From a bacterium (GTDB lineage Bacteria; Patescibacteriota; Minisyncoccia; Phycocordibacterales; UBA6899): 64,000 nt of DNA. Where the stretch lies: contig JAJZQJ010000001.1 of the NCBI GenBank assembly GCA_021851895.1, forward strand, positions 135,338-199,337. The letters are read 5' to 3'. A program made the position numbers and the translations under genes. Numbering within the stretch: position 1 is the stretch's first letter; every line of letters starts with the position of its first letter. The notes under the pieces were generated by a model. The model did not search any database, had not been told where the DNA came from, and was given only the letters and a program-made list of their open reading frames with translations. This document shows, piece after piece, positions 14,701 through 55,601 of the stretch.

Positions 14701-17700
14701 AGTGTTCCATAATTTATCGCGAGACTACCATTGAGATAGAGCGGCGTCGTCGTCTGCCAGGTTGCTGTCGTCGCACTCTCGCCAAAGGTGACATCATTGA
14801 ATTTATACTGCGAAGCACCAGTATTATCTATCGTATGCACGCTCGATGTCGCATTGAAGACGGTGCGTCCTGTACCGGGAGTAAATATGCCAGAGTTACG
14901 CCAATCCCCAGAGATCTTGATGATGTTTGCATCTGCATTCGTCTCTCCTTCGATCACGTGAGCATACATCGTATTCGTGACACTTCCTGTCGACTGTGGA
15001 CGCCATGTCGTGCCCGAGAGCACGGCAAGCGAAGCATCAGGACATGGAAGTAGCGTACTTGCACACAACGTCAGATTCCCCGACGCATCAACATTATGGA
15101 AGATACTTGTACTCGTTGCGCCGCTCGTCTCATTACGATAATCGATGAGCCCGAGATCTGCGTTCGATATCGTTTCTCCAGTCTGTGTGAGGTCACCGAG
15201 CGTAAGCCAGCGTCTGGAAAGTTCCATATTCGAGAGACTACCCGCACCCATGAATTTCGCGACCGCGACGGCGCGATTTGCCGCACCAGGATTATTGATC
15301 CAAGCAGTCACGACGTCTCCATTACGGTATGAGACGCTCGGAATAGTCCAATGCCCCGTCGCATCAATGCTTCCCGTCTGTGCGCTCGGCACTCCATTTA
15401 CCGCGACGCTCACCGTTCCTGACGTGAGCACAGTTGTACGATCGTGGTCACGAGCGATACCGCCCACTGCAAGACCCTGTGCCCAATCGACGGTCCAATC
15501 ATTGAGTGTTGGACAATTCGTCAGCCCATTACATGCGAGGTCCGCACGCAACCTGATCGTTGTATATGTTCCGACATTCAAGCCCGAAAGATCGATCGGA
15601 CTCGTCGATGTCCCAACGCTGTTGCCCGGAAGATCGTTATCAGGAATACGCGTCCAATTCCCTGTCGGATCGAGATACTCGAGTGAAACGAGTGCGGTCG
15701 AACCTCCAGGAATACTCGTATTGAAGCGTGCCTGACGCCATGCAGGCGCTTGACCGTCTGCAAAGTTGATCGGCGAAGAGTAGATACGGCCCGTCGAAAG
15801 ACCCTCCTGCGTTGCAAGGTCAAATGGCGCACCGTACGGTTTCGTCGAAACAGATGGTGTGGCGATATTTTGCGGCGTCGTCCATGCCGACCCATTCCAT
15901 ATCGAGAACATATAGCGTAGGCTCGGCGAGCGTGAAAGGATCATCGCGAGCACATCGCCAGAGGCTGAGGCTCGTGCGAGCTTTGTCGTCCAAGCCTCTA
16001 CTCCACCCCACTGGTAGGTCGTTCCTGACCATGTCCAGAGCTTATTTGTATTGCTTGTTGAACCTGACTGCCATGTTCCCGCAGCGACATTTCGAGCATC
16101 CCAAATTGTATGATTATTTGTTGCACTTCCATCTGCTATCGCCCAAGACTCGTCGGCGACGACCATGAGGCGCCCAGTACGTCCAGGTTTCGTCTCATAG
16201 ATACAGCTATTGGATTGTGCATGACGCGAATATGGCCAATACTCACCGGGAGCGACACTCACCGGTGCAGTGTTGGTAAAACGGACATAATCGGTATATG
16301 CACCATCATCAGTTGCGGAATACTGGGAGTTTGTACAGAGCTCAAGATCATTGCTTGCGGGATCGCGCACAAGCTTTCCCCATGCGAGTTTGGCAATCGT
16401 CGCACCACCGCCCAAGTTTGTATAAGCAGCTTCTGCTCCAGACCAATTCGAGCCACCCCAAATTCTATAGCGGAATCCCCTTGTCGTATTTGCGCCGACG
16501 ATTGCAACTGCCCTGCCGCTTGTGCGCTCGAATTCGATATCCATTGCATCATGTGCAGGCTCAACGACTCCAGCACTTGCGCTGAAGGTAAACTCGCGTG
16601 ACGCAACCCATTGTGTACCATCCCACTCCTCAGCGGTAAATGAAGAACCGGTATTTCGGAAGAGCGCGAGGATCTGATTCTGGATGGGATTCGATGCCAA
16701 TTTCACAAGCTCACAGTTTGTCGTGAATGGGAGGTTGAGCGACTGCACCGCCCCCCATGTCGAACCATCAAAGACCGCGTACGACGCATCCATACCGTTA
16801 CATGCGACCGCGACTGCACGGCCACTAAGTGCCTCATACGCAACATCGAAACTCTTTCTCGTTGCCGAAGGACCCGATGCAGGCATTGTGAGCATACGCG
16901 ACCATATATCATTCTCGAAGACCTGGAAACTCATCGCACGATCAGCGCCCATCGTACCTAAAATGAATTGATCATATGCGGGCGAAGCCTTTGCGACAGA
17001 CCAAAGCACGGTCGAGTTGATCGAAAGTGCATTACCCTCAGCGCCAAGTGCGCCTGCCTCGTAGAAGCGATACTTTGGATTTGGATTACTGCCACTTCCA
17101 TAGACCATGAGCACACGATCACTGGTCGTTGCAACAGCGACACTATTGCTTGTGTTCGCATAAACACCCGAGAGTGTATCCATCTTGAATTGTCCTGCCA
17201 TCGTCTGAAACCACGTCGTATATGCTGGGGCTGCCGCCTGTGCGGTCACTGCGCGTGTATCAGACCAGAAGGACCAGGCACCACCACCAACACCATATGC
17301 AGCGATACGGTAGTAATATGTCGTTCCGCTCGTAAGCGGCGCACTCGGCACGAACTTGATGGTATGACCCGACGCAAACGGAGCAGTACCACCACTGGTC
17401 ATATCGGTGAATGTACCACACGCAGGTGCCGTCGGTGTCTGCGTATCGCTATAACATGTCGTTGATGCAGCGAAAGTCGGATCCGTAGAATAGGAGAACC
17501 AATAACGAATCGGATATGATTGCGGATCGATAGCAGAAAAGACAAACGGCGTTGATGATGCCACGCTTGCATGACTGAATGGACTCGTGATCGTCGGAGC
17601 AAGCGTCTTATACGCCCACTTTATCGTCCAATCACTGAGGACTGGGGTTGCGGTATTTGTGAAGTTCGCACGAACGCGCAACGATGGATATAGTTGTGGA

Positions 17701-20700
17701 TCAAGTGCTTTCAGTGACGTTGTCACTGAAAGACCCGTCGAATTCCCTGGGATCAAACTGTCGGGAACGAGCGACCATGTACCGCTCAAATCCTTATATT
17801 CGATCTGGAATGTGATTCCCCCGCCTGCATCCTTCGTAAACTCGAGACTTCCCCAAACAGTACCCATCGTCCCCTCACTAAAGATGAGCTCCGGAGAGAC
17901 GATCGTACCTGAGGTTGAAGTCGATGCGAGCCTTACTGCATTTCCGGTCACAGTCAATCCCGTTGACACATCTTGCGCGAACTGCGCATCGGTCGTTTGG
18001 AACCACGCCGAAACATTGAGCGAGGTGTCCACTGTAATTGCCTTTGCTATAGACCAATCACTGTACTGTGTGCTTCCTGTCGGATCCTTCGCACGCACAC
18101 GCCACCAATAGGTCGTATTATTCGTAAGCGCCTTCGCTTGCGGAACAGTGAATTGTACCGTATCCCCCGAGGTATATGGTGCCTTATTCGTCGGATTGTT
18201 CACATTGAGGAAATTCGATGCGGCATTGGTCGTCGAAAGGTCTACAAAAGGCGCACCAAAATTAGGATCGGTGTCTATCTGCACCTCGTAGTGCTCAGTA
18301 TTCGACTCGTCGTCTGCGGCAGAGAATGTGAATGTTGGCGTAGTTGTCGAAATCTTTTCATGATTGAACGGTGTTTTGAGGTCCGGCGCAAACGGAGCAT
18401 TATTTGTGATGAAGCTCGGAAAATTCTGATATGCCCCAAGGATCTTTCCACTATCCTCCACCATACGCAGACAGTACTGCGTCGACGAGGCCAGTGTGGT
18501 ACCTGCTTCAAGTGACCAGTCCCACTCTGCGTTCTCGCCAATACCCGTCGTATTGACGAAGTTCACCGAGCCGCTTGATTCACGATATGCCTGCTCGCGT
18601 CCAGGAGTCGTCGTCGAAAGCAGGGCGGATGGTAGTGCAGCGCCCTCATTAACGAGCGTGTTGTCATAACCCATAAGCGGCGCACCACTTCCTGGAGCAC
18701 CAACATCGTTCCAATTGAGTGCTGAGGCACAATTATTATCTGCTGCATACTGCAGTTTGAGCGGGAAAAGACCCGCGGTCGAGGTAGCATTCTCAACATG
18801 CATACCCATACGCACACGAAATACACTTCCCGGACGGAAACGATAGGTCGCATCCGCGACGGGCATGTCTTCAGTGACATCAACCGCTCCTGCTGGCCAT
18901 GGATCGACTGGCGTTAAGTCATTGACGTTATCATAGAATCGATAATCCGTCTGCGAAAACATCGGAATACCGACTGAACGTTTTGCGAAAACGACCGTGA
19001 TGAACGGTGGAAGATTTGAGGTTGTCGAGAAGGATGCAAGGTCGACCGTATGGGTGTGGTTTGGATCCGCTCCGAACAACGAGCCAGAGGTGACCGTCGC
19101 GCGTGCACTTCCCACTCCAGCATTTGTAGGCAAACCAAGAAGATCAGGATGGTCGTGTGAAGCATGTCCACCCGTCGCCCCTGCAGCTGCAGCAATTTTT
19201 ACGAATCGATTGCTAAGCACTCCGCCATCTGATGAAAGATTGATCCATCCTGCAGCAGGATCGGCGTCCCACATCGTGATAGCATCATTAGGAACAGGAC
19301 CCGCGGCAGTTGATTGTGCCAAACGATAGGTCACATATGGTGGGTCATTTGAAAGCGGTGGTGTCGTCGTGCTGATGAGCGTGTGTGTATGTGTAACCGT
19401 CGATACATATGGATATGTTCCACTCGTTCGACGAGCATACGTCGGACCACCGGTCGGCGCACCTAGCGTTCCCGAGACCGAATGTGCATGCGTTGGAGAG
19501 CCCGTTGCCATACCGACTGAGTTCTCTCCGTATGGATAGTTCCCTTCCATGCTCGTCAAAGCATTCCACCCTGAACTTGGGATGGATTCGAAGAGGACTG
19601 CTGCACCTGCAGGCAGATTCACTTCACCGGCAGTCTGCGATCGAAGGACGCGCAGTGAGAGTGATGGAGGGAGATTACTTCCGTCACCGAAAGTCGGCGT
19701 GAATGCATGCGTATGATCCTTATAGGAGAGGAAGTTCGTCGTACCTGCAGCAGGAACTGCAGTCGTATAAACCGCCGAGCTCACAGATGTAGTAAACGTA
19801 TGCGTATGCGTTGTCGCACCACCGGTAATACCATACGTCGACGAACCCATCGCCCAACGATCAAAGAACGGCCCAGTCGAAGAGGAAACGAGATCCCACC
19901 CCGCAGGAATACTCATGCCGTCAGTCCAATAGATGATCATCTTCCCTGCCGCATCAGATGCGACCTGCCATGTGCGCGGTTCGGTATATGCATTCGCTCC
20001 ATCACCTATCGTCGCAGGACCAAGGAAGAACATGTACGGCGAGATATCCGGTGCATCAAAACGATAGGTGAACTGATACACCTCACCAGGATTCATGTCG
20101 ACATCCCAACTAATGCGCTTCACTGCGTGCGTCTCATCTGTCCAATCGAGCGTCCCTCCACCGCGCTCAACGACGTCAAAATCACCAGGAATGAGATCGG
20201 AGATCTTTCCCTTGTAAGGCTCGCGCGAGAATACGCGCAACGTCATATTATACAAAGCGGTCGGGTTGATACGTGTCGGTCCTGAGCGTTCGATCACATA
20301 GGTCATGTGTGGAACAACAGAGAACGTATCACGAACATCTGCGAGGATGTTTTCTGCGTCATCAAGACGGACAAGGCGCACCATGTATTTACCCGCATCG
20401 ACAGGAGTGTAGCTTGCGGTGTAATCAGGAACATCGGTGATGTTGTTACCATTACAATCATTAGAAGCCGTAACGGGCACTTCGATGGTCGTACTTGCAG
20501 GAGTCGTCACAAAGAGCTTTAAGCGCGCATCACAGATCGTATTTCCTGTATCCGAAAGTGCACCCATGGTGATCTGCGCAGTCTCACCTTGTTCATAGGT
20601 TGCCTTATTGAAGTTCACCGCAAGGAGCGCCCAATAGAAATCATACGAATCCTCATAAGTTGATGAGCCTTCATGAATCTGCATGCGCAAGGTCAACTTT

Positions 20701-23700
20701 CCAGGAGTGATGCGCATGCGCGCGTCCTTCGCGAAACGTACTGTCCATTCATTGTTCGTGCCATACTCCACGCTTGTCTCGATATCGAGCGGTTTACCCG
20801 ACTGCTCGACGACAACATTGTCCACACTGAATGCAGGCATCCCAACAAACTTTCGTAACGACTGTAGGAAAGAATTGCTCTGTGGCTTATACTGGAATTT
20901 GAATGTTGGCACCTCTTCTGCAGAGAATTCTCTCTTCGCGCTCAAGAAACGATTCACGTGCGCGACTTCCTTATCTCCAAGTCTATCGAAGAGACGATGC
21001 TCACCAGGAAGTACGAATTCAGGTTCACCAAAAGCGGCTTGAACACCATATGCATCTGCAGTCCTTGAAACAACGTCACGAGCAACGATCTGTCCATCGG
21101 CATCATTCGAGCCAAAGAAGCGCGCGCCAACGGTTCCGCCGTCCTGATCTCTAAACATACGCACAAGCGTCCCCTCGTCGAACGGACCACTGAGGGTCAC
21201 GCCACAGGTGCTCGTTGCAAGCAAACTTCCGCGTGCATCGTAAGCACCAAATATATGATGACCTTCACAAGCCGCACGCACTGAGCGCTCCTTGTGATCG
21301 AGCACCGCACTCGCGGCAAGCTGCTCAGGAATACTCTTCCCGTTTTCTGCGATGAGTGTCGCCTTCTCTGCATCTTCTGCAACAAACAATGTAGGTACCG
21401 ACGATGTTGCCTTCTGCTCTCCATCGATATCCATGCTCGAAACATTGCCCGGAGTAAGTTCCATCGACTGCTCCCCTGCGGTGACCGTCGTACCCTCATA
21501 AGTACCAGAGATCGCATTGAGTTTACGTGTATATTCAGGAAGCACCGCCGAGAGGCCTGAGAGGCCAAGAGGTGCAGCTACCGCACGTCCGAATACAGAA
21601 TGTGCCTTCGCTGAAATAGGACCGGTCGCACGAATGACCGCATTGTTTGCCACATGTTCAAAAAGCGCCGTCTCACCGTAAAGCAGTGTACGTTCATCAT
21701 GACCATCAACGACCACATGGAGCTGCGGTGCGAGTGCAGTAATGGTGACATCAGCCTCCTCTCCGCCTGGGCTCATGAGCACAGCACGTGGCGTCACAAC
21801 CGAAGTCGTGAAAGGTGCCCATGGCTTACTCGAAGCCTCGGCATCAGGATTTCCCGCATAAACATAGATGCGCGGAATGATTCCACCATTCTGCGGCATG
21901 CGTACCCAGATCATTCCGGTGTGGTCACGAATGTCAAAATCAGCGATCCAATATGGCAACTCATTCAATCCATCCTCATCGGAGAATCGAATGTCAGAGC
22001 CGTCGTTCTTCACGTGGTTCCAGAACTCAAGCGGCATCTTATTGAGCGCTATCGGCACAGCAACCTCATTTGAACTCTCCGCATAAGGCAGTGTGACATC
22101 GATCGGCATACGCCAGTTCCATGATCCATCGAATTCGGTATGACCGAGTCCATATGCGCCACTTGCAGCAACCGCCTCGACATAGATATCGCCTCGGGTA
22201 TTCAGTTGCGTATCGTAATTGAAACGGAAATACTGTGTAGCGCCCGGCTCGATGTCGAATGGATTGGTATAGGACACCTCATGTACCGAGGTAGGAAGGA
22301 TATCGCTCGGCATCTCCGAGAGTAATGCATCCATCGCTCGCCCGAAAATATTCTGATCGTCCCTAAAGGAACCAGAATAGATGGCATCCGGCACAAAATC
22401 CCTGCGATAGACCGTATCTTCCTGTTGACCAACTGCGGTCACTTCAGAAAGACAGCTCGTCTTGTCGTCGCTCAATGATGCACATACATGTGTCTCATTC
22501 GAATCGGCACAAGAGTAGCCGTTCGTTTGTGCAAGCACATCCGAGCTCGTTGCGGAAACCCAACCTGAAGAACACACATAAGCGATCGGTGCAGTGCGTG
22601 CTTCGACCACCTTGTGCGGAACGTTATGGGAATACTGTGCGATATCGGTCACTCGCCCACCATTTTCAGGAAAATGGAACGAGAGTCTCACGTGTTCTGG
22701 GTTCTTCCCAACATTAGTGACGGAAACATAATCCTCACCACTACCAAGTACCGCATGACGATCCTTTGTCATCGCGACACGCAATTTTGCACCTGGAGTC
22801 TCTGCGACAAGATCATTGAAGTCGATCGTCGTCCCATCCTCAAGTTTCAAATGATCGCGCTCCTTGATTCGTCGCTCAGCATCACGCGCGAGCAAAGCAC
22901 TCTTCACGTTAGGTGAAAGCAAAGCGAGGTCGTCTGGCGCTTCATCCGCAGCAAACCCAACATCGACCCAAGCTGCATCAAGAAGTACCGATGCATCAGC
23001 CTCTCCATCGCGAACGTATTCGACGGAAATCGTCATGTTCGCGAGCTCAGACCAAGAACTTATACCAAGTGGGAAAGTCAAGAATCCTCCACGAGAACTA
23101 TTATCGAATTCTCCAGTAACTTGCTGCTCTCCAAGATAAACCCACTTACCATTACGATAAGCACGGAAGATCACTCGATCAGGATCATCTTGCGGCGCAG
23201 CCCGACCTGCGATCGAAACCATGAGCTGTGCATTGCGTACAGGATATTTCGAAAGCTCTGGTCCAACACCAAAGCCTTCCATGACAAGAAGATGACACTG
23301 CTTTCCAAAAAGCGTACATGAAGCAACCTTATATGGATCGCGATCATCAGGAGTATCAACCTGACTTGCACCATCAGCGACAGAACCCGCATCTGTACCA
23401 ACATCCGCCGCGGAAGTCGAACTTTCATTTGAAGTAGGAGCGGAAACACTTTCTACGGGAGCAGGAGCTGCCGTTGCGCTTGCATCTTCCGTTGTGACCA
23501 CGGTTGACGGAGCAGGTGCAGGAACTGGAGCTGATACTGTCGCGCTCGAAGGCGCAGCTGCCCCACCATCAGATGTTGCGGCTGGCGCAGAAGATTCCGC
23601 AGGGGCCGCAGCAGTGGTCGCTTGTGTCTGATCGCCGCTAGAAGAAGGCACGTCTTGAGCAAGCGCAGTATGAGGAGTGAAATAGCGTGCAAGTATATGA

Positions 23701-24683
23701 CCAATGCGTGCAGATGCTGATGTAGTGGTCGACGTATCTGCTGCAGGCGTAACAGTAGATTGCGCTGCTGGCTCCTCTGGCATCGTTGCCGTAGCAGGTG
23801 CGACGTTTACCGTATCGGACTCTGGCGCGGGAACGATTGCGGGGAGCACATTGTGAATCACTGTCTGTATCGAGTCGATGATCGAAGGTGCCGATGTCGC
23901 GGTCACGACAGGAGCCGATGGAACAGCAGTATCAACTGCAGATGATGTGCTGCTCGTTGCAGCAGAAGCCTCAGTAGAAGTGCTCGTGCTTGAAACTACA
24001 TCAATCGCTGGCGACGATGTCGATACAGAATCGACGGCAGTAGTCGATGCGGCGGATGACGTTGCATCGAGTGTCGTTGAAGCATCGATCATCGGTGCGC
24101 GCTCGGTCACTGCGTATGAGCCAAATGCAAATCGAGCACTGTAGCTGAGATCGAAATCAGCAACACGCGCATCGATCGAGAGATCCTGTACTGCTGCCGC
24201 TGTAGGATTTTCGACACCTTCTCCTGAGACAAAGGAAGGTGAAATATATGCATGCACTTCTTTTTCCGCACGCGCTGAATAGGAGAAGAAGATCGACGTT
24301 GCGAAGAAGACAACCATCAATAGGGATGCCGAAAGTACCGTAACGCGACGATGCTTGCGATAAAACGCAAAGGAGCGCTTTGTGATATATGTAAAAACCT
24401 CAATGAGAAAAACGAGAACCAGATTTTCGCGCAAAGCCTCAAAAAACGCACGTAGTTTTTCCACAACTGCGAGGAATCCGTGGATCAAGGGCTTCAGGGT
24501 ACGCCCATGACGCTTGTAGGTCTCAGAAAATGCATGTGCAAAAAAAGATAAAACGAAAGAAGTCACCTCCAGGATAAATGCAAAAAATCCACGCAATGCA
24601 AAAGCGACCGTGCGTGTGCAGTGTGAAAACCATTTCCTCCAAGAGGGCGTGGTCATTACATTGATTTTACCATTTTTAGCCAT
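5790..24683 (-). CDS. Giant (6,297 aa) membrane-anchored surface protein: N-terminal TM helices, S/T/A/P-rich linker, two DUF2341-like modules, FN3-like modules, long Gly-rich beta-helix-type repeats, three tandem ~780-aa repeat units
   Basis: Single uninterrupted ORF of 18,894 nt. N-terminal hydrophobic helices; about 270 aa of Ser/Thr/Ala/Pro low complexity. DUF2341-like segments (WNWRMPIDVTLPYAESS...IRFSDEDG near nt 21850-22140; WPYRERVSITNNTSS...DIRFTAADG near 7700-7960). FN3-like ...TTYWWRVRAKDPTGSTQYSDWS. Triple repeat ...NDP(S/A)GxPGxxxWDDS at nt about 12760, 10390, 8110. Confidence 0.8.
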   Translation of the reverse strand: MAKNGKINVMTTPSWRKWFSHCTRTVAFALRGFFAFILEVTSFVLSFFAHAFSETYKRHGRTLKPLIHGFLAVVEKLRAFFEALRENLVLVFLIEVFTYITKRSFAFYRKHRRVTVLSASLLMVVFFATSIFFSYSARAEKEVHAYISPSFVSGEGVENPTAAAVQDLSIDARVADFDLSYSARFAFGSYAVTERAPMIDASTTLDATSSAASTTAVDSVSTSSPAIDVVSSTSTSTEASAATSSTSSAVDTAVPSAPVVTATSAPSIIDSIQTVIHNVLPAIVPAPESDTVNVAPATATMPEEPAAQSTVTPAADTSTTTSASARIGHILARYFTPHTALAQDVPSSSGDQTQATTAAAPAESSAPAATSDGGAAAPSSATVSAPVPAPAPSTVVTTEDASATAAPAPVESVSAPTSNESSTSAADVGTDAGSVADGASQVDTPDDRDPYKVASCTLFGKQCHLLVMEGFGVGPELSKYPVRNAQLMVSIAGRAAPQDDPDRVIFRAYRNGKWVYLGEQQVTGEFDNSSRGGFLTFPLGISSWSELANMTISVEYVRDGEADASVLLDAAWVDVGFAADEAPDDLALLSPNVKSALLARDAERRIKERDHLKLEDGTTIDFNDLVAETPGAKLRVAMTKDRHAVLGSGEDYVSVTNVGKNPEHVRLSFHFPENGGRVTDIAQYSHNVPHKVVEARTAPIAYVCSSGWVSATSSDVLAQTNGYSCADSNETHVCASLSDDKTSCLSEVTAVGQQEDTVYRRDFVPDAIYSGSFRDDQNIFGRAMDALLSEMPSDILPTSVHEVSYTNPFDIEPGATQYFRFNYDTQLNTRGDIYVEAVAASGAYGLGHTEFDGSWNWRMPIDVTLPYAESSNEVAVPIALNKMPLEFWNHVKNDGSDIRFSDEDGLNELPYWIADFDIRDHTGMIWVRMPQNGGIIPRIYVYAGNPDAEASSKPWAPFTTSVVTPRAVLMSPGGEEADVTITALAPQLHVVVDGHDERTLLYGETALFEHVANNAVIRATGPISAKAHSVFGRAVAAPLGLSGLSAVLPEYTRKLNAISGTYEGTTVTAGEQSMELTPGNVSSMDIDGEQKATSSVPTLFVAEDAEKATLIAENGKSIPEQLAASAVLDHKERSVRAACEGHHIFGAYDARGSLLATSTCGVTLSGPFDEGTLVRMFRDQDGGTVGARFFGSNDADGQIVARDVVSRTADAYGVQAAFGEPEFVLPGEHRLFDRLGDKEVAHVNRFLSAKREFSAEEVPTFKFQYKPQSNSFLQSLRKFVGMPAFSVDNVVVEQSGKPLDIETSVEYGTNNEWTVRFAKDARMRITPGKLTLRMQIHEGSSTYEDSYDFYWALLAVNFNKATYEQGETAQITMGALSDTGNTICDARLKLFVTTPASTTIEVPVTASNDCNGNNITDVPDYTASYTPVDAGKYMVRLVRLDDAENILADVRDTFSVVPHMTYVIERSGPTRINPTALYNMTLRVFSREPYKGKISDLIPGDFDVVERGGGTLDWTDETHAVKRISWDVDMNPGEVYQFTYRFDAPDISPYMFFLGPATIGDGANAYTEPRTWQVASDAAGKMIIYWTDGMSIPAGWDLVSSSTGPFFDRWAMGSSTYGITGGATTHTHTFTTSVSSAVYTTAVPAAGTTNFLSYKDHTHAFTPTFGDGSNLPPSLSLRVLRSQTAGEVNLPAGAAVLFESIPSSGWNALTSMEGNYPYGENSVGMATGSPTHAHSVSGTLGAPTGGPTYARRTSGTYPYVSTVTHTHTLISTTTPPLSNDPPYVTYRLAQSTAAGPVPNDAITMWDADPAAGWINLSSDGGVLSNRFVKIAAAAGATGGHASHDHPDLLGLPTNAGVGSARATVTSGSLFGADPNHTHTVDLASFSTTSNLPPFITVVFAKRSVGIPMFSQTDYRFYDNVNDLTPVDPWPAGAVDVTEDMPVADATYRFRPGSVFRVRMGMHVENATSTAGLFPLKLQYAADNNCASALNWNDVGAPGSGAPLMGYDNTLVNEGAALPSALLSTTTPGREQAYRESSGSVNFVNTTGIGENAEWDWSLEAGTTLASSTQYCLRMVEDSGKILGAYQNFPSFITNNAPFAPDLKTPFNHEKISTTTPTFTFSAADDESNTEHYEVQIDTDPNFGAPFVDLSTTNAASNFLNVNNPTNKAPYTSGDTVQFTVPQAKALTNNTTYWWRVRAKDPTGSTQYSDWSIAKAITVDTSLNVSAWFQTTDAQFAQDVSTGLTVTGNAVRLASTSTSGTIVSPELIFSEGTMGTVWGSLEFTKDAGGGITFQIEYKDLSGTWSLVPDSLIPGNSTGLSVTTSLKALDPQLYPSLRVRANFTNTATPVLSDWTIKWAYKTLAPTITSPFSHASVASSTPFVFSAIDPQSYPIRYWFSYSTDPTFAASTTCYSDTQTPTAPACGTFTDMTSGGTAPFASGHTIKFVPSAPLTSGTTYYYRIAAYGVGGGAWSFWSDTRAVTAQAAAPAYTTWFQTMAGQFKMDTLSGVYANTSNSVAVATTSDRVLMVYGSGSNPNPKYRFYEAGALGAEGNALSINSTVLWSVAKASPAYDQFILGTMGADRAMSFQVFENDIWSRMLTMPASGPSATRKSFDVAYEALSGRAVAVACNGMDASYAVFDGSTWGAVQSLNLPFTTNCELVKLASNPIQNQILALFRNTGSSFTAEEWDGTQWVASREFTFSASAGVVEPAHDAMDIEFERTSGRAVAIVGANTTRGFRYRIWGGSNWSGAEAAYTNLGGGATIAKLAWGKLVRDPASNDLELCTNSQYSATDDGAYTDYVRFTNTAPVSVAPGEYWPYSRHAQSNSCIYETKPGRTGRLMVVADESWAIADGSATNNHTIWDARNVAAGTWQSGSTSNTNKLWTWSGTTYQWGGVEAWTTKLARASASGDVLAMILSRSPSLRYMFSIWNGSAWTTPQNIATPSVSTKPYGAPFDLATQEGLSTGRIYSSPINFADGQAPAWRQARFNTSIPGGSTALVSLEYLDPTGNWTRIPDNDLPGNSVGTSTSPIDLSGLNVGTYTTIRLRADLACNGLTNCPTLNDWTVDWAQGLAVGGIARDHDRTTVLTSGTVSVAVNGVPSAQTGSIDATGHWTIPSVSYRNGDVVTAWINNPGAANRAVAVAKFMGAGSLSNMELSRRWLTLGDLTQTGETISNADLGLIDYRNETSGATSTSIFHNVDASGNLTLCASTLLPCPDASLAVLSGTTWRPQSTGSVTNTMYAHVIEGETNADANIIKISGDWRNSGIFTPGTGRTVFNATSSVHTIDNTGASQYKFNDVTFGESATTATWQTTTPLYLNGSLAINYGTLSPGAQPLSIESSLSIGANGKFTKGTATTTFLGVPVATWSDLSSGGQDLGNILIDGSPKSLSLSSGVHATNVTIASGDTLFFGVNTLSLSGSFENDGTVNGGTGKLLMAPVAAATIKQGSAVLNNVTLQSGSVSWVDTSATTSGDVLVSGGAHTLPVNTLTVGGGFTQTGGTFTASNQTILNGTSANKQMSAISSFKALSFTGTGSWNFISSATTTGELVISGGAVTLPSGTLTVGGNFSNTANIVHNGGTLFMNGGTQTIALGGKTIGGVTAGGTNLTFVDTNVIAAGSIIVNAGSTLNFPTNGSLTVGGSFINNGTANANASLLSMNRASGAATLSAGTTVLSGLGIAGGGNFTIVGNTRVSATTTIGTVGSFTMQTGNELRVDGFFTNAAANVNTTWTGSTLRLTSGATMSINTKNTGDDDYGAIILDNGTQLRMWNSTATSVTTNAGSSLYGQNWGAVSGALRIYGTYSQNSGSAYWNNGTDFDGTLLSTPRPVAVAIAGGSTLNFVPNTALEIVGAPSATTTVSALSGTYAVNLATSTLSAQYATLSNLGIAGISITGSSTLAAFDDVDISAGVNSGYAMTLTKEVIDANAGKQYAHDMWRSGGFTGTKNVRVTSASTNYIRFKQHGGNIAGENFDNDPSGDPGEVRWDDSSYIISVSGTVYDKNLLPMGATVCDGVTAVVRVQVTGGGAFGGTCGAGGNFTVNGVTFSGETTMSIYLKGNPNAKAVTVTRGASVNLSGIALYQDRVILRHEDTLAMTNAALAGFDADNDPDMLFTSNSGTLNIPSNDELWIWAGKTFTPGGNVTTGTGGTGVYGGALHIDNGATLNAQSTELFSIGGRLQADSGAVFNTASSTVQLTATDARTIAGVNPFTFWNLSFTGTGSWSLASDIAVANTFDLASGTLLGTGNITTQNGATGAGALAMTGGTFALPNGGSWGGPNPWTAFNLTLGDGTTNSTTTKSGVGTTTVAGVLTVSMNHDLDLATHPLTLTATGTPLVVNGTIDTTGSTVTYASAGATNVTNIVYNGLTFLGSGTYTLPSLALVVKGNFTVGDGITTPTVTGLSGDPLLSILGDVSIASGATYIASDAATTTVKGNWTNAGTFTNSLGLVQFIGSGVKTIAAGNSAFGRVDFNDPLGSWTLTGNTTASVVSLSDVSSWTLASGKTLEIDNAFLNLVGSAKTTWTGSTLYLNTGNRVALNTKTSGADVYNILKLGVNTEAVMWNSSSTQMVTAAGSGVLSMNHAGVNGDLYIFGDYKNSSAPEYWDYTKDFDGETLGTPRAARVRFASGATATYSGTSILEMVGDPSATTTVRALSGTYGLTIGGATTSMQYLDISDANTTGVSLTGSVKVAGMNDVVFRNPSGTGSMMTVAGSVISANPVKIMYRLGFIASGGNNVTATGTTASAWRFVNHYGGRDGEAYDNDPAGNPGYLIWDDSTAQFTLSGHFYKSDGVTVSSACNGVSQNVVLRVINASTTVATACSAADGSFSIPNILPAGNDVLAVFATSTSGVKAVTYTYDPLTNIADYDLYENTVIVRNEQSNPITNALIDGFDKDQSSNIPARVVSNALTLDTNTKLLVWDAKSFAPGGNVSIPGNTNTSSIEGDLELRPGSTWTTNGADVYTIGGDLSIGAGAHVAGTSGDFTFTSAVAGRSITSASPSTMTNLTFNGAGSWTMSGIATTTGDVTITTGTVTLPSSSLAIGGSFLNSGTFSANGGAVYMTATSTGRQIRTSGSAFKDLTFLGTGAWSFLDNATTTGNFTIASGTPTLPAGALAVGGDFQNIGGGFNANGGTLSLSGSGTRLLVPGGSTFANLRIANGDFSTNVANATTTGDVYIDSGSLALPTEVFSVGGTFKNIAGAFSAGASSTVRMTATTTGKLINPGNSTFTNLIIDGAGGGFTIEANATTTKSMTIKTAAAFVQSPSTRLVVQDLFTNNVGGTWTGSTLRLEKTGVSSINTKSASASSYSTIDLGPSAQVSVWNASSTSVSTGSGAALYAQNYANVNGALQIYGQYVRNTGADYWSATTNFDGTPIASRTVNVRFAPGSSGTWNTGTELHIVGTSVATTSVQSISGNYDLTVSDGTFEGRYLKVRNTTGNGIQLLGNTHILALDDADLATGVDTGNILSIDGATVDMNAGAILSNDMFALGVGHTSGVNAYLNGTSTNALNFMSATGNLAGEAFDNDGGGDCGAFRWDDSSCQFVDQRYYRWRHDDGTEAVPDSEWFGGATSSWPYRERVSITNNTSSAASNVAVLVKLPYHSQMQADYRDIRFTAADGVTSIPFWIDTYTTAEANVWVKVPTITANAASDIYVYYGNSAATAASNGANVFTYFFDGESGLTGMSGDTGAFKTVDMASRSPLEQLGLKYLRAMTDTGQTLGMANLSAGVSRGSVVGTGVTIRENLYIDGTSNDDTCLTFGANSTSGSNWGFCVSPQQAAKNVRLVKDATKDGYIPNASAEVSSQDITLSTAGWYSARIDWEAIGKITAWLYDPNGNQVANISATDSYNPGSGIGFSYWYQHGGWDNVTATPLVKGTPTVTVLSPQQHGGASWITPENTAYGTASLGEKVRLRFSIRNTGTPLTNQQLELDYAIKGAAPNCESVADVNYTPVLPASSCATQDVCMSTSTYFMDGDPTTPLLSTPKGLDFVTGRIVEDPSNKTTGLDINQNFFTEVEYALQITPNAIQPSYCFRVSDNGNRLVSYTKVAEASVSHPPKISNWNWTTPTLSLINEGGTTTVMATGTVTDYSGYTDISPVATGTIFRKSLGESCMANDNNCYTGGKTQCSLSDCAGISCTLTCTADLQYFAEPTDIGAYAGDMWTAAVHVHNMADVYDNATADATLNTLKALAFTTGDVDFGSLDIGSTTPAYANPTATLQNTGNAQFGLDIAGTDLTTTGSTIPVDNEKVATSTFDYSSCTLCTTLSTSTTPLSLTFPKPVSTTPVVNNLYFGLYIPFGTKPLTHNGFISVSAN

Positions 24684-50650: not shown

Positions 50651-51340
50651 TCAATTGAGCATAATTTGCTTGATTTTTGCTGCGTCAATGCCCTGCCCAT
50701 CCCAGTTTCCGGCATAGAAACCGAACGAGGGGCAGCAATCGCTGCGGAGACATCCGACCGCTGCACCATCGATGATCGTTGCCGTCTCGTGGATACCTTC
50801 ACTCTCCGCACCATAAAGCGCAATACCATCCCCAGGGAGGATCGACTGACCACAAAGACAACAGTGGATCGCGCCTTTCCGTGCTTTTTCAAAATGGCAT
50901 CTTGGGCAAAGGAACTCCTCGTTGGCGGTTTTCCTCATGAAACCCGAAATGAAGTTCGCGGGAAGCTCGAAGCCGAGCTTCTCCCTGCCCCAAAGTAATA
51001 TTTCGAATTTTAGCGGCCCGAAGTGGCCACATTTAGGAAAGAAGATGTCATCACGCCCCGAAAGCGAGGTGAACACGGATTCACCTTCTTCCTCGAAATG
51101 CTTCGTGCGCACGAGCTTCGCTCCACCGACGGAGCAAACGACTCCGAAACCATCAGATGAAACGATACCTTTTGCGTGTTCGGTGTTATCGACGACGGCT
51201 ACACTGATATCCCCCTTCTCCGCCTTCGTTGCATTGGTTACCACCTTCCGAGACCAACCAAACAGCATGTTCCACGAAAAAATCGAGAATATGCTCATAA
51301 ACGCCCCCATGTACAAGCACTCGCAACAAACTAACACCAA
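50651..51340 (-). CDS. Hypothetical Cys-rich protein (start uncertain)
   Basis: Several Cys pairs (CPRCHFEKARKGAIHCCLCGQ, CLRSDCCPSFG). Terminated by the hairpin at 50619-50646. No family recognised. Confidence 0.35.
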   Translation of the reverse strand: MVLVCCECLYMGAFMSIFSIFSWNMLFGWSRKVVTNATKAEKGDISVAVVDNTEHAKGIVSSDGFGVVCSVGGAKLVRTKHFEEEGESVFTSLSGRDDIFFPKCGHFGPLKFEILLWGREKLGFELPANFISGFMRKTANEEFLCPRCHFEKARKGAIHCCLCGQSILPGDGIALYGAESEGIHETATIIDGAAVGCLRSDCCPSFGFYAGNWDGQGIDAAKIKQIMLN

Positions 51341-51397: not shown

Positions 51398-51529
51398 TCA
51401 GTCTTCAGAAGAATGCCCATCGGACTGCGGCACAGGACCACCACCCTCCAACGGATCGGGCGTCGCGGGAGGATTTCCCTCCTCGATTTGGTCCTGGATG
51501 GACCTAAGGTACATACCCAGTGCACACAT
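51398..51529 (-). CDS. Small acidic 43-aa protein (MCALGMYLRSIQDQIEEGNPPATPDPLEGGGPVPQSDGHSSED)
   Basis: AAGGAGG SD 5 nt upstream of the internal ATG of ORF 51398..51583; own terminator hairpin (AAAACCTCGCAATTGCGAGG, about 51358-51382). Coordinates are plus or minus 1 nt. Confidence 0.35.
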   Translation of the reverse strand: MCALGMYLRSIQDQIEEGNPPATPDPLEGGGPVPQSDGHSSED

Positions 51530-51617
51530 GGTGCCTCCTTGAAAGAGTTCTGAACGATACCATAGAAAAAGGCTATAACGCAAGTGCCTGAATGAACTTT
51601 CGATGAAGCATCCCTAC

Positions 51618-51646
51618 TTGCCAAAATATGGGTTTCCTGCTATATT
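51618..51646 (+). promoter_or_regulatory. Sigma-70-type promoter for rpmF (TTGCCA-N17-TATATT)
   Basis: Read directly upstream of the rpmF ATG at 51656. Confidence 0.5.
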
Positions 51647-51655
51647 ATCCCCACT

Positions 51656-51820
51656 ATGGTAACCCACATGCGACATACGCGCGGTCACACGAACAATCGT
51701 CGTTCACACCACGCGCTCAAGGAGGCACGTTTTGTGACGTGCGAGTGTGGTGCGCAGCAACTCATGCACCGTGCGTGCGGAAAGTGTGGCACCTACCGCG
51801 GCAAGAAGGTCACGGCCTAA
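51656..51820 (+). CDS. rpmF: 50S ribosomal protein L32 (54 aa; under the 60-aa ORF-track cutoff)
   Basis: MVTHMRHTRGHTNNRRSHHALKEARFVTCECGAQQLMHRACGKCGTYRGKKVTA: basic N-terminus plus CxC...CxxC zinc ribbon ending ...YRGKKV. Frame 2; stop TAA at 51818-51820. Confidence 0.75.
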   Translation: MVTHMRHTRGHTNNRRSHHALKEARFVTCECGAQQLMHRACGKCGTYRGKKVTA

Positions 51821-52076
51821 AGCCCAACTCCAAGACAAACACCCCTAACGGGTGTTTGTTTTTAGCACCGTGCGTGCGGAAAGTGTGTCACGCATATATT
51901 TACTTGGCGGCAAGAAGGTCACGGCCTAAAGCCCAACTCCAAGACAAACACCCCTAACGGGTGTTTGTTTTTAGCACCGTGCGTGCGGAAAGTGTGTCAC
52001 GCATATATTTACTTGGCGGCAAGAAGGTCACGGCCTAAAGCCCAACTCCAAGACAAACACCCCTAACGGGTGTTTT
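51766..52076 (+). repeat. Tandem triplication (about 99/109/104 bp) of the rpmF 3' end plus its intrinsic terminator
   Basis: CACCGTGCGTGCGGAAAGTGTG...GGCAAGAAGGTCACGGCCTAAAGCCCAACTCCAAGACAAACACCCCTAACGGGTGTTTGTTTTT occurs three times in tandem. Copies 2 and 3 are identical to each other; they differ from copy 1 by a 10-bp insertion/substitution (TGGCACCTACCGC to TGTCACGCATATATTTACTTGGC) that breaks the L32 frame. Confidence 0.85.
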
Positions 52077-52334
52077 TCTTATCCGGCCTCACGGCCTGGT
52101 TTTGGCGCAAGAGCGCCTCGACTACTCCTGTTGCGTCACGGAATATAGGTATTCATTCTTTAGATATTGTCACGTAGAAAAGCGCCGATGGATCGGCGCT
52201 TTTACGATACGAGATCTACGACATTACATAACCACACTTAGTAACTTTTGACGTTGAGATTGCACACGTAAATGTGTGAAACGCAAGGTCTTTATCCCCT
52301 ATACCCCCCACCCCATACCTTGTATAATAGCCCC

Positions 52335-55300
52335 ATGGAAGGATCTTCACGAGCACCTTTTGTGCATCTCCACACGCATACCCATTACTCCCTACTCGAT
52401 GGTTTGAGTAAGCCTCATCAGATCGTGAAAATCGCAAAGGAAGACGGTCAGCCCGCAGCAGCGATCACCGATCACGGAGCGATGTACGGAGCGATCGACT
52501 TCTACATGGAATGCAAGAAGGAAGGAATCAAACCGATCATCGGCGTCGAAGCATACATTGCAAATCGCACACGCTTCGACAAGGAGCCCGGAATCGACAA
52601 CAAGCGCTACCACTGCACTCTTCTCGCAAAAAATGACACGGGATATCGCAACCTCATCAAGCTGACGAGCCTCGCTTATACCGAAGGATATTATTACAAA
52701 CCTCGCATGGACAAGGATCTTTTGCGGGTACACTCCGAAGGCATCATCGCACTCTCGGGATGCCCTGCAGGGGAGCTTGGACGCTGTATCTTGAATACGG
52801 GAGACAAGGAACGCTGCAAGGAGATCATCAAGGAGTATCAGGATATCTTCGGGCCAGAGAACTACTACATCGAGATCATGCACCATCCCGATGTCGAGGA
52901 CTTCGAGCGCTGGAGAAGTACACTCATAGAACTCGCGCGCGAACTCGATATACCACTGGTCGCAACACAAGACTCGCACTACCCACATGCTGATGATGCA
53001 CGTGCGCACAAGACGCTGATCGCTATTTCGACTGCATCGGACATCACCGATACGGGTATCTTTGGAGGCGAAGGACATTATCACTTCATCACCACTGATG
53101 AGGCATATAAACTCTTCCACGACATCCCGGATGCAGTGGAAAACACAAGCAAGATCGCGGAGCGCTGTAACGTCGAGATCACATTGGGTAAATTCATCTT
53201 CCCGAAGTTTCCACTTCCCGAAGGAAAGACCGATGACGAGGTGCTACAGGAACTCTGTTATGCGGGCCTCAAACGTCGCGGTCTCGAGAATGATAGCAAG
53301 GCGAAGGAGCGTCTCGATTACGAGCTCGGCATCATCAAATTCAAGGGCTATGCATCTTACTTCCTTGTCGTTGAAGATCTCATCCGTTTCGCGTACGAAA
53401 ATGACATCTATACGAACATCCGTGGTTCGGTCGCCGGTTCGATGACGACCTATACCCTCGGAATCACCAAGGTCAATCCGCTCGAATATCATATCCCCTT
53501 CGAACGCTTTCTCAATCCAGAGCGCCCTTCCGCACCTGATATCGATATGGACTTCGGTGATACTCGCCGCGAAGAAGTACTTGAATACGCGAAACGTAAA
53601 TATGGTGCAGACAAGGTCGCACAGATCGGTACGTTCGGTACCATGCTCGCAAAGGGTGCCGTACGCGATGTTGCACGTGCGCTCGGAAAGAGCTATGACT
53701 TCGGTGATCGTATCTGTAAGATCATTCCCGATGGTGCACAGGGGGCACCGATGACGCTCGATCATGCGATGGAACTCGAACCCGAGCTCAAGCGTATGTA
53801 TGATACCGACGCCGAGACGAGAGAAGTGCTGAACATCGCGAAGAAACTCGAGGGTACCGTGCGCCACGTTTCGGTCCACGCTGCGGGAGTCGTTATCTCA
53901 CCGATGCCGATGACCGACATGACACCCGTGCAGTTCGACCCTAAGGGAGGAAAGCTGATCACACAGTACGACATGTACACTGTCGGAGAAGACGGTGTCG
54001 GACTGACGAAGTTCGACTTCCTTGGTATTCGCAACCTCACCATCTTGGGAGATGCAGTGAAGCTCATCAAAAAACATCGCGGCATCGATCTCGATATCGA
54101 AAAGATCCCACTCGACGACAAGAAGACCTTCGCAATGCTCTCCCGGGGCGAGACGGTGGGGCTCTTCCAGCTGAACGGTGCAGGTATGACCAAATGGCTC
54201 ATGGAGCTCCACCCGACGAGCATCCACGATATCAACGCTATGGTCGCGCTCTATCGCCCAGGACCACTGCAGTTCATTCCAGATTACATCGCGAGAAAAA
54301 AGAACCCCGCACTCATCAAGTACCCTCACCCTGCGGTGAAACCACTTCTCGAGCGAACATATGGTGTGCTCGTCTATCAAGACGACCTCCTCTTCATGGC
54401 GCACGATCTCGCAGGATTCTCGTGGGGAGAAGTCGATAAGTTCCGAAAGGCGGTCGGAAAGAAGGTCGCCTCGCTGATGGCGGAGCAAAAAGAGAAATTC
54501 ATCAAGGGTATCGTCAAGCACTCGAATTTCTCACAAAAGGATGCTGATGAGATTTGGGCATGGATCGAGCCTTTCGCGTCTTATGGATTCAATAAAGCGC
54601 ACTCCGTTTCTTACGGATATGTCGCCTACCAGACTGCATACCTCAAGGCGAACTATCCTGCTGAGTATATGACCGCGGTCCTTACGAACGAAGCGGGAGA
54701 TACCGATATGATCGCCGAGATCATTCATGAGTGTAAACGCATGAAGATACCCGTGCTTCAGCCTGATATCAATCTCTCCTACTCTCCATTCACGACAGTG
54801 AAAGGTGCAACCGAAGCAGAAGATCAGATCCGATTCGGACTCTTCACCATCAAAGGACTCGGTGGCGCGATCGCGCAGGCTATCATCGACGAAAGAGAGA
54901 AGAATGGACCATATAAAAGTTTCGTCGATCTCCTTGAGCGTGTGCAACACAAAGATTTGAATAAGAAATCCCTCGAGGCGCTCATTCGCACAGGAGCATT
55001 CGACTCTCTCGGAGAGGAGCGCGGTGTTCTCCTCCATAATATCGATGATGCGCTTGAATACCACAAACTGCATCGCCAAGAACAAGAGAGCGACCAGGTC
55101 TCACTATTCTCACTGATGACAGACAAGAAGGACCTCCCTAAATTACGTATTCGTCCCGCAAAGCACTCAACTGCGGACGAACGACTAAAATGGGAAAGAG
55201 AGCTTCTCGGACTCTACGTGACAGGACATCCACTCGAGAAATACCGTTCGAAGCTCGACAAGGCGATGCCGATCAAGCAGCTTATCGAACATGGTAAGGA

Positions 55301-55601
55301 AAATTCTGTCATTGTCGTCGCGGGACTCGTCGAGGAATACAAAGACATCCTCACGAAGAAGAACGAGCACATGGCTTTCATAAAGATCGCCGATTTCACG
55401 GGAACCATCGAGGCAGTGGTCTTCCCTCGCACACTCGCAGAGTTCAAAGACCTACTCTCGCTCGATAAGTGTATCGCAGTCAAAGCGAAATTCAGTCGTC
55501 GCAACGACCAGCCGAGTATACTCATCGAAAAAGTGAAATCTTTGGATGATAATACAGCACCAGCGACAAGTGAAAGCGTTCGAGATGGCGCACCATACTA
55601 A
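52335..55601 (+). CDS. dnaE: DNA polymerase III alpha subunit
   Basis: N-terminal PHP domain FVHLHTHTHYSLLDG; polymerase core and C-terminal OB fold. The ATG at 52335 is preferred (TATAAT box immediately upstream); the ORF opens at 52272. Confidence 0.9.
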   Translation: MEGSSRAPFVHLHTHTHYSLLDGLSKPHQIVKIAKEDGQPAAAITDHGAMYGAIDFYMECKKEGIKPIIGVEAYIANRTRFDKEPGIDNKRYHCTLLAKNDTGYRNLIKLTSLAYTEGYYYKPRMDKDLLRVHSEGIIALSGCPAGELGRCILNTGDKERCKEIIKEYQDIFGPENYYIEIMHHPDVEDFERWRSTLIELARELDIPLVATQDSHYPHADDARAHKTLIAISTASDITDTGIFGGEGHYHFITTDEAYKLFHDIPDAVENTSKIAERCNVEITLGKFIFPKFPLPEGKTDDEVLQELCYAGLKRRGLENDSKAKERLDYELGIIKFKGYASYFLVVEDLIRFAYENDIYTNIRGSVAGSMTTYTLGITKVNPLEYHIPFERFLNPERPSAPDIDMDFGDTRREEVLEYAKRKYGADKVAQIGTFGTMLAKGAVRDVARALGKSYDFGDRICKIIPDGAQGAPMTLDHAMELEPELKRMYDTDAETREVLNIAKKLEGTVRHVSVHAAGVVISPMPMTDMTPVQFDPKGGKLITQYDMYTVGEDGVGLTKFDFLGIRNLTILGDAVKLIKKHRGIDLDIEKIPLDDKKTFAMLSRGETVGLFQLNGAGMTKWLMELHPTSIHDINAMVALYRPGPLQFIPDYIARKKNPALIKYPHPAVKPLLERTYGVLVYQDDLLFMAHDLAGFSWGEVDKFRKAVGKKVASLMAEQKEKFIKGIVKHSNFSQKDADEIWAWIEPFASYGFNKAHSVSYGYVAYQTAYLKANYPAEYMTAVLTNEAGDTDMIAEIIHECKRMKIPVLQPDINLSYSPFTTVKGATEAEDQIRFGLFTIKGLGGAIAQAIIDEREKNGPYKSFVDLLERVQHKDLNKKSLEALIRTGAFDSLGEERGVLLHNIDDALEYHKLHRQEQESDQVSLFSLMTDKKDLPKLRIRPAKHSTADERLKWERELLGLYVTGHPLEKYRSKLDKAMPIKQLIEHGKENSVIVVAGLVEEYKDILTKKNEHMAFIKIADFTGTIEAVVFPRTLAEFKDLLSLDKCIAVKAKFSRRNDQPSILIEKVKSLDDNTAPATSESVRDGAPY

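Follow-up and report, generated by a model that had tools for sequence, protein, structure and literature searches.

A copy-number-variable tandem array of dead rpmF 3' ends with terminator-type hairpins ahead of dnaE in Patescibacteria

The DNA considered here is a stretch of 64,000 nucleotides (nt) from contig JAJZQJ010000001.1 (assembly GCA_021851895.1), which we call the window, and our subject is the interval in it between the genes rpmF and dnaE. The rpmF gene (51656..51820, plus strand) encodes ribosomal protein L32 of the zinc-ribbon type, 54 amino acids (aa) long, as read from its open reading frame (ORF) and a match to Pfam PF01783 (E = 5e-12). A protein of the same sequence carries the L32 annotation in a metagenome-assembled genome of Paceibacterota, and the host organism is a bacterium of the Patescibacteria/Paceibacteria type. 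The dnaE gene, encoding the DNA polymerase III alpha subunit, follows on the plus strand (52335..55601) and matches the Pfam domains PHP, DNA_pol3_alpha, finger, HHH_6 and OB; alignment fixes its start at 52335 and not at the ATG at 52272. The spacer between the two genes is 514 nt long and contains three repeat hairpins, two small G+C-rich hairpins and one palindromic hairpin.

The three repeat hairpins belong to a tandem array, which Tandem Repeats Finder reports as a single one at 51798-52075 (period 109, 2.6 copies, 100% matches, score 556) and which is the sole long-period tandem repeat in the window. Read in register with the gene, it has three units, all on the plus strand. Copy 1 (51766..51864, 99 nt) begins with the final 55 nt of rpmF, stop codon included, which are followed by a 19-nt spacer, by the hairpin and by GTTTTTA. 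Unit 2, or pseudo-copy 1 (51865..51973, 109 nt), and the terminal unit 3, or pseudo-copy 2 (51974 to about 52080), are non-coding, and the latter ends in a T-rich tail of its own, TTCTTAT. The two pseudo-copies match exactly up to 52075, where the tail of unit 3 begins (TTCTTATCC versus GTTTTTAGC). From copy 1 they differ by one G-to-T change and by the replacement of an 11-nt block, GCACCTACCGC, with a 21-nt block, TCACGCATATATTTACTTGGC, to which we refer as the insert (51888..51908 in pseudo-copy 1 and 51997..52017 in pseudo-copy 2, both plus strand). This exchange is a net gain of 10 nt and shifts the L32 frame. The insert occurs twice in the window and the hairpin 21-mer three times, with 0 occurrences of either expected by chance. 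The initial annotation of this DNA, made from the sequence alone, had described the rpmF end and its hairpin as occurring three times head to tail, copies 2 and 3 being identical and made noncoding by a 10-bp change that destroys the L32 frame. All of this is borne out: the units are in register, the identity extends over 102 nt, and no conserved ORF lies in the pseudo-copies. The three terminators that it placed between rpmF and dnaE are indeed there as three terminator-type hairpins, whose activity is predicted.

Hairpin 1 (51832..51862, plus strand) begins 12 nt past the rpmF stop and has a 13-bp stem, AAGACAAACACCC/GGGTGTTTGTTTT, with the loop CTAAC and a T-rich 3' arm and tail. Hairpin 2 (51941..51971) has the same sequence, and in hairpin 3 (52050..52080) the stem at 52055-52075 is followed by TTCTTATC; both lie on the plus strand, and a simple terminator scan flags hairpin 3 alone. 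The energy of the stem is -17.5 kcal/mol (z = -5.0). The T-tract follows the stem and partly forms it, and the 5' arm is A-rich, so that the hairpin reads as a terminator on both strands. When ten units from the window and its relatives are aligned, 92% of cells in the stem are paired, against 50-67% in slid controls. Three stem pairs are changed on both sides, and the covariation score is not attained by any of 500 shuffles, these statistics being drawn from only four independent lineages. One such double change turned the innermost C-G of the stem into G-C in the pseudo-copy of a close relative (L136, see below). With a stable G+C-containing stem, a T-tract, a position 3' of a stop codon and compensatory changes, the repeat hairpin fits an intrinsic (Rho-independent) terminator, and it is the only clearly maintained feature of the units.

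Several other ways of reading the units were tried and rejected. The only ORFs that cross units 2 and 3 are one of 109 aa in an alternative frame (51628-51957) and one of 33 aa; the former is interrupted in four relatives (L001, L136, L002 and L140), and no start is conserved in any frame, which leaves no coding role for the units. A fourth, degenerate unit in 52076-52335 is not supported, as the best local score is 18 against a null of 15.3 +/- 2.1 and 14% of shuffles reach it. Nor do the units belong to a dispersed repeat family (REP/BIME, MITE or MIRU-like), since the hairpin and the insert occur at one locus only in the window.

Relatives were sought by protein-guided scans of genome and metagenome collections, which gave 134 rpmF loci, only one of which (L002) lies inside the clade that bears the array; closer relatives, for example L136, L137 and L140, were found via DnaE. 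A species-specific DNA pattern returned 0 matches in the JGI metagenomes. L001 (GCA_035583355.1) encodes the same L32 protein and has a single rpmF end with one hairpin, and L140, with a DnaE 81% identical to that of the window, has a single unit as well. L136, a 193-kb contig from a groundwater metagenome with a DnaE that shares 94% identity with that of the window, has copy 1 and one pseudo-copy, which is 82% identical to its own copy 1. In L002 (CAYLUP010000020.1; L32 89% identical) a diverged second unit abuts the first, and the contig stops exactly at the end of this unit. The dnaE of this genome is on another contig, L137, whose first base lies inside the hairpin and which supplies two more units with a period of 109; single-nucleotide polymorphisms (SNPs) tell these two apart and set both off from the unit in L002. 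That genome holds copy 1 and at least three pseudo-copies. The unit totals are 1 in L001 and L140, 2 in L136, 3 in the window and at least 4 in L002 and L137 together. With head-to-tail units of about 100 bp that vary in number at an orthologous locus, the array is a minisatellite, or variable number tandem repeat (VNTR). A scripted self-similarity check found no such duplication in 50 further genome loci and about 65 metagenome rpmF loci from more distant Patescibacteria. The initial annotation had taken the view that a single-copy arrangement in relatives would speak against a duplication. Single-copy relatives do exist (L001 and L140), but others carry the array, and the duplication stands.

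The same comparison bears on whether the array exists at all. An assembler could have looped, or could have chained strain variants, in a genome that has one rpmF 3' end, and the 100% identity of units 2 and 3 over 102 nt is what one would expect in that case; the L002 contig, broken exactly at a unit end, tells of assembler difficulty at this place too. But the insert-bearing unit destroys the frame and is therefore not an allelic variant of rpmF. Further, the L136 pseudo-copy, which has no more than 82% identity to copy 1 of that genome and is situated on a 193-kb contig, would be easy for any k-mer assembler, and L002/L137 come from another sample and have units distinguished by SNPs. At most the count of two pseudo-copies rather than one could be wrong. 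Judged from the sequences, the repeat unit is real biology and not an assembly artefact, because independent, diverged assemblies share its left breakpoint and a homologous frame-breaking insert. The artefact that had been suggested at the outset is thus excluded for the repeat unit, the number of units in the window being a separate matter, and we find it extremely unlikely that the genome has only one rpmF 3' end.

What connects the arrays of different genomes is the insert. In all six pseudo-copies of the three array-bearing genomes the left boundary lies at the same GCAC of rpmF, and in all six an insert with the consensus CACGC(A/G)(T/G)ATAT...CTTGG(C/T)GGCAA sits at the same place; the window insert is homologous to those of L136 and L002/L137. 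Between pseudo-copies of different genomes the insert is 56-81% identical, while against any copy 1 the figure is 6-27%. The sequence outside the insert behaves differently: there the window pseudo-copies are 97-99% identical to the window's own copy 1 and 53-55% identical to the pseudo-copies of L002/L137. Moreover, the spacer of copy 1 in the window, CAACTCCAAGAC, is of the type found in the L136 pseudo-copy and unlike that of copy 1 in L136 or L001. Sequence must therefore have moved between units, and the exchange is directly evident. The DnaE tree joins L001 with L136 and these two with the window, (window,(L001,L136)); L137 branches next, and all others lie outside. Since L001 is flanked on this tree by lineages that bear the array, the array predates their split and was lost from L001, whose sequence looks as it would after a homologous deletion between units. 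Taken together, the pattern points to one duplication, long ago, with gene conversion and unequal crossing-over after it.

In our opinion the locus is quite probably a copy-number-variable tandem array of dead rpmF 3' ends with their terminators, which would have come about in several steps. First, in the ancestor of the lineages of the window, L136, L001 and L002/L137, about 100 bp would have been duplicated in tandem, from the GCAC that lies 55 nt before the rpmF stop through the whole of the terminator T-tract. Slipped or illegitimate pairing probably gave rise to it, at a TGCA microhomology beside the hairpin, for which TTTTGCAG after the L001 hairpin and CATGCACC in rpmF are the candidate partners. 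Second, as the shared derived characters show, the downstream copy gained the frame-breaking block of net +10 nt and became the ancestor of every pseudo-copy in the three genomes. Third, unequal crossing-over and gene conversion would have altered the copy number, giving the observed counts of 1, 2, 3 and at least 4, and the same exchange would keep the flanks of the pseudo-copies like the rpmF of their own genome. The order seen in the window (a copy 1 junction tail, a pseudo-copy junction tail, a pseudo-copy terminal tail) is what one unequal crossover between two 2-unit chromosomes would produce, with its position in the segment between insert and hairpin, and the heterology of the insert may slow the collapse of the array. 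Fourth, given the structure that is present, rpmF transcripts would meet three terminators and further hairpins before the dnaE promoter; the symmetric hairpins could also halt antisense transcription, and with the extra terminators both read-through and occlusion of the dnaE promoter would probably be reduced. Among the readings offered by the initial annotation, a fixed slippage duplication that reinforces termination comes closest to this history. It needs amendment in that the duplication is neither recent nor private: an old pseudo-copy is common to several lineages and evolves in concert with rpmF, and the number of units, copy 1 included, varies from 1 through 2 and 3 to at least 4.

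The duplicated gene end could instead be the footprint of foreign DNA, either of a site-specific element with the rpmF end for an attachment site or, in a second form, of homology-facilitated illegitimate recombination that was anchored in the highly conserved 5' half of rpmF and turned the displaced resident 3' end into a pseudo-copy. The TGCA microhomology at the junction would suit such an event, and so would the variable content of the rpmF-dnaE spacer, where a 171-aa gene is present or absent, and the mosaic conservation of rpmF, with 81-84 of 87 nt identical in its 5' half and saturation in its 3' half against L002 and L140. Yet the units lie immediately end to end and no element DNA separates them, none of the neighbouring ORFs shows an integrase or recombinase domain, and both the hairpin and the insert motif are absent from 2.9 million viral contigs. 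A functional donor allele, moreover, cannot supply a frame-breaking insert. We regard integration as quite unlikely.

The conserved insert also invites the question of whether each pseudo-copy is a small-RNA gene or decoy, with a TATATT promoter in the insert, the hairpin as its terminator and an RNA of about 65 nt, which, being identical to the 3' end of the rpmF mRNA, could titrate a factor acting on that mRNA. The initial annotation had mentioned a repeated small-RNA-like unit among its options. TATATT is indeed the same hexamer as the -10 element of rpmF, the insert is conserved between genomes (62-81%), and RNAalifold gives a weak second helix across it. On the other hand, there is no -35 element and no TG extension, and a promoter scan finds nothing in the insert. 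The hexamer itself varies: L136 has GATATC and one of the L137 units GATATA, the critical last T being lost. The second helix has a covariation term of only -1.5 kcal/mol, and several of its pairs are broken in the window. An Rfam 15 covariance-model search of 51.6-52.3 kb returned nothing at E up to 1. The small-RNA unit did not hold up against these results, and we consider it very unlikely.

The array is most likely a stack of bidirectional intrinsic terminators between rpmF and dnaE, as far as structure allows this to be judged. It would act as three serial intrinsic terminators after a presumably strongly expressed and nearly leaderless rpmF. What this might be good for depends on dnaE. 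TATAAT stands 6 nt before the dnaE ATG (52323..52328, plus strand), in a layout shared by L001, L136, L138 and L140-L142, and the dnaE transcript is probably leaderless. Since dnaE is seemingly leaderless, a read-through transcript from rpmF would not be translated, but the polymerase would cross the dnaE promoter. Fewer polymerases running over that promoter would be a plausible benefit of the extra terminators.

The opposite view is that the array is a neutral junk minisatellite, its hairpins carried along by gene conversion from copy 1 with no effect on expression. L001 and L140 do without the array, copy number drifts, and homogenisation of the flanks by conversion needs no selection. Against this, the hairpin of the L136 pseudo-copy differs in its stem from that of its own copy 1 and yet is fully paired by virtue of double changes. 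Direct repeats of 100 bp are prone to deletion, and the single-copy state is irreversible, so that persistence in three lineages with small genomes hints at a benefit. Besides, a hairpin with a T-tract in the path of a transcript would terminate whether or not it is selected. In our opinion neutrality is a possibility, though a somewhat unlikely one; the array may be maintained by its benefit or may be tolerated as a by-product.

Several points weigh against the history and the terminator role that we prefer. The terminator role is read from structure, and L001 and L140 with their single units demonstrate that, in some contexts at least, additional units can be done without. Only three lineages are known to bear the array, so that few independent events lie behind the statistics of covariation and conservation. 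The two window pseudo-copies, being identical over so long a stretch, could have been miscounted by a short-read assembler. The insert is conserved somewhat more than one would expect of free DNA: it matches at 16 of 21 positions between the window and L002, where the 4-fold degenerate sites in the 3' half of rpmF match at 1 of 10, and the terminator model leaves this unexplained. Finally, the rpmF locus is abnormally conserved, and the age of the array is therefore not readable from the divergence of flanking genes.

This conservation deserves a description of its own. At 4-fold degenerate sites of dnaE the window is 43-48% identical to L136 or L001 and 30-35% to L137 or L140; judging by these figures, synonymous sites of dnaE are near saturation between these genomes. 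The nucleotide identity of rpmF to the window is nevertheless 164/165 in L001 and 163/165 in L136, and against L001 all 29 of 29 4-fold sites are identical. Compared with L002 and L140, the first 87 nt of rpmF are identical at 81-84 positions (4-fold matches 12-14 of 15-16), whereas the last 78 nt are saturated (4-fold matches 1 of 9-10), with a sharp boundary in the middle of the gene. The island of high identity starts precisely with the -35 element of the rpmF promoter and runs to the stop codon (51617-51820). That promoter-like site (51618..51646, plus strand) was found by promoter scan with 10/12 matches and the TG present; it consists of TTGCCA, a 17-nt spacer and TG-n-TATATT, is of the sigma-70 type and is kept in L001, L136, L002 and L140. 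The distance from the -10 to the ATG is 9 nt, and because it is so short the rpmF mRNA probably has no leader or nearly none.

Either a strong constraint on the rpmF mRNA at the nucleotide or RNA level or a recent exchange of the locus between lineages could have caused the island. If the locus was exchanged, the array may have spread along with it, and for this reason we claim no specific age for the array. One could go further and see the array and the rpmF unit as one selected module, in which the pseudo-copies including the insert are kept for an action at the RNA level, be it as obligatory stacked bidirectional terminators guarding the leaderless dnaE promoter or as mimics of the 3' end of the rpmF mRNA, which would serve as a buffer for a factor in control of L32 production in these minimal-genome bacteria. 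We hold such a module to be unlikely.

Both rpmF and dnaE (51641-51658 and 52323-52337) have a -10 hexamer 6-9 nt before the ATG and no Shine-Dalgarno sequence, an arrangement kept in the relatives, which suggests that both mRNAs are leaderless or almost leaderless. The protein has its own peculiarity. A 54-aa L32 ending in YRGKKV(T/A)A characterises the small clade of the window, L001, L136, L002 and L140. In other Patescibacteria (about 115 readable loci among L003-L135) L32 has nearly always 66-129 aa and a lysine-rich C-terminal tail, L085 being an exception with an L32 read as 51 aa. The loss of the C-terminal tail and the duplication of the 3' end occur in the same lineage.

The remainder of the spacer contains hairpins of other kinds. 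A fold of 52076-52215 shows two small G+C-rich hairpins at 52083..52117 on the plus strand, CCGGCC..GGCCTGG followed by TTTT, and GGCGC-AAGA-GCGCC; this stretch has no similarity elsewhere and is unique to the window, and 52076-52177 as a whole is about 100 nt of unique hairpin-rich DNA. Downstream of it, at 52178..52203, lies a perfect 12-bp palindromic hairpin, AAAAGCGCCGAT/ATCGGCGCTTTT, of the bidirectional terminator type. L001 and L136 have this hairpin too, at the end of a convergent gene of 171 aa, which has no Pfam match and is located on the minus strand between rpmF and dnaE (5248-5763 in L001, 2360-2875 in L136). This gene is absent from the window and from L137, and the window retains only its palindromic hairpin.

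The rpmF-dnaE spacer is repeat-prone across the clade. Several assemblies of the clade (L138-L142 and one Logan contig) start 60-350 nt upstream of dnaE, and in L141 (1-30) and L142 (91-190) the contig break falls in a microsatellite of CACTAAT/CACTAAC heptamers. In L137 the stretch 380-900 upstream of dnaE, in which no gene is called, contains direct repeats of 43 nt (580, 848), 36 nt (507, 804) and 15 nt (492, 723) as well as a 20-nt repeat that occurs three times. Some relatives have, in the interval from the rpmF terminator to dnaE, a perfect DnaA-box-like TTATCCACA or several motifs of the TCCAC type, at about 243-251 in L140, about 32-40 in L141, about 179-187 in L142, and at 240-280 and 845-862 in L137; on this sequence evidence, control of dnaE by DnaA in those relatives is possible. 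The TCCAC-rich and TTATCCACA motifs prompted us to consider a replication origin in the spacer, which we rejected for the window, as its GC skew is monotonic and no DnaA box is present in its rpmF-dnaE spacer.

Upstream of rpmF the gene content is variable. A 229-aa ORF without a Pfam match (50651-51340, minus strand) lies in the window between a NusB-NUDIX fusion gene and rpmF; at the same position there is no gene in L001 and an unrelated-looking 139-aa gene in L136. Divergently from rpmF, on the minus strand, runs an ORF of 43 aa whose Shine-Dalgarno/start region (51523-51542) reads TCAAGGAGGCACCATGTGTG on its own strand and is close in sequence to the stretch TCAAGGAGGCACGTTTTGTG inside rpmF (51717-51736), a likeness that is probably a by-product of LKEARF codons. 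Elsewhere in the window a single ORF of 6297 aa occupies 5790-24683 on the minus strand; its product is probably a giant surface protein of a kind common in Patescibacteria.

The array resembles several known systems. Like bacterial intergenic minisatellites and VNTR, for example the mycobacterial MIRU-type repeats of 40-100 bp, it has head-to-tail intergenic units of about 100 bp, a varying copy number, homogenisation within the genome and change by slippage or unequal recombination. It differs from the MIRU type in being confined to a single locus in the window rather than forming a dispersed family, and in that its unit is a dead copy of the 3' end of the adjacent gene plus terminator, which conversion keeps like the live gene. 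Tandem intrinsic terminators follow highly expressed operons, as in E. coli rrnB T1-T2, and the likeness here consists in serial hairpins of the Rho-independent type after a strongly expressed gene and before the next promoter. The classical terminators, however, are unrelated in sequence, whereas those after rpmF are duplicated copies with coding-derived sequence, and their termination is predicted. The attL/attR duplications of tRNA or protein gene 3' ends also place a non-functional direct repeat of a 3' end downstream of an intact gene, but the rpmF copies are abutting and multiplied, with no integrase in the neighbouring ORFs and no match among viral contigs. A near-copy of about 100 nt of a gene 3' end, a hairpin after the gene and a phylum rich in such systems further recall the template and variable repeats of diversity-generating retroelements. 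Here the target would be a ribosomal protein, and among the immediate neighbours, to which the examination was confined, there is no reverse-transcriptase gene. The pair was rejected as such, given that the differences are an 11-nt block replaced by 21 nt and one G-to-T change and not adenine-specific substitutions.

A full-text literature search found no description of such an rpmF-terminator array. It is a fresh example of known phenomena, namely intergenic minisatellites, tandem terminators and concerted evolution; as a variable tandem repeat it is fairly ordinary and, taken alone, a small evolutionary curiosity. It does have practical uses. The array marks a predictable point of fragmentation, where independent short-read assemblies break (the contig ends of L002 and L137), and it is a ready copy-number marker for strain typing in the clade. 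The near-unchanged rpmF transcription unit is, in our opinion, a more intriguing lead than the array itself. For the compact genomes of Patescibacteria, the locus suggests that a dead gene end can persist across species, track its parent by conversion, and expand and contract, the practical effect being a stack of predicted terminators ahead of dnaE, the gene of the replicative polymerase.

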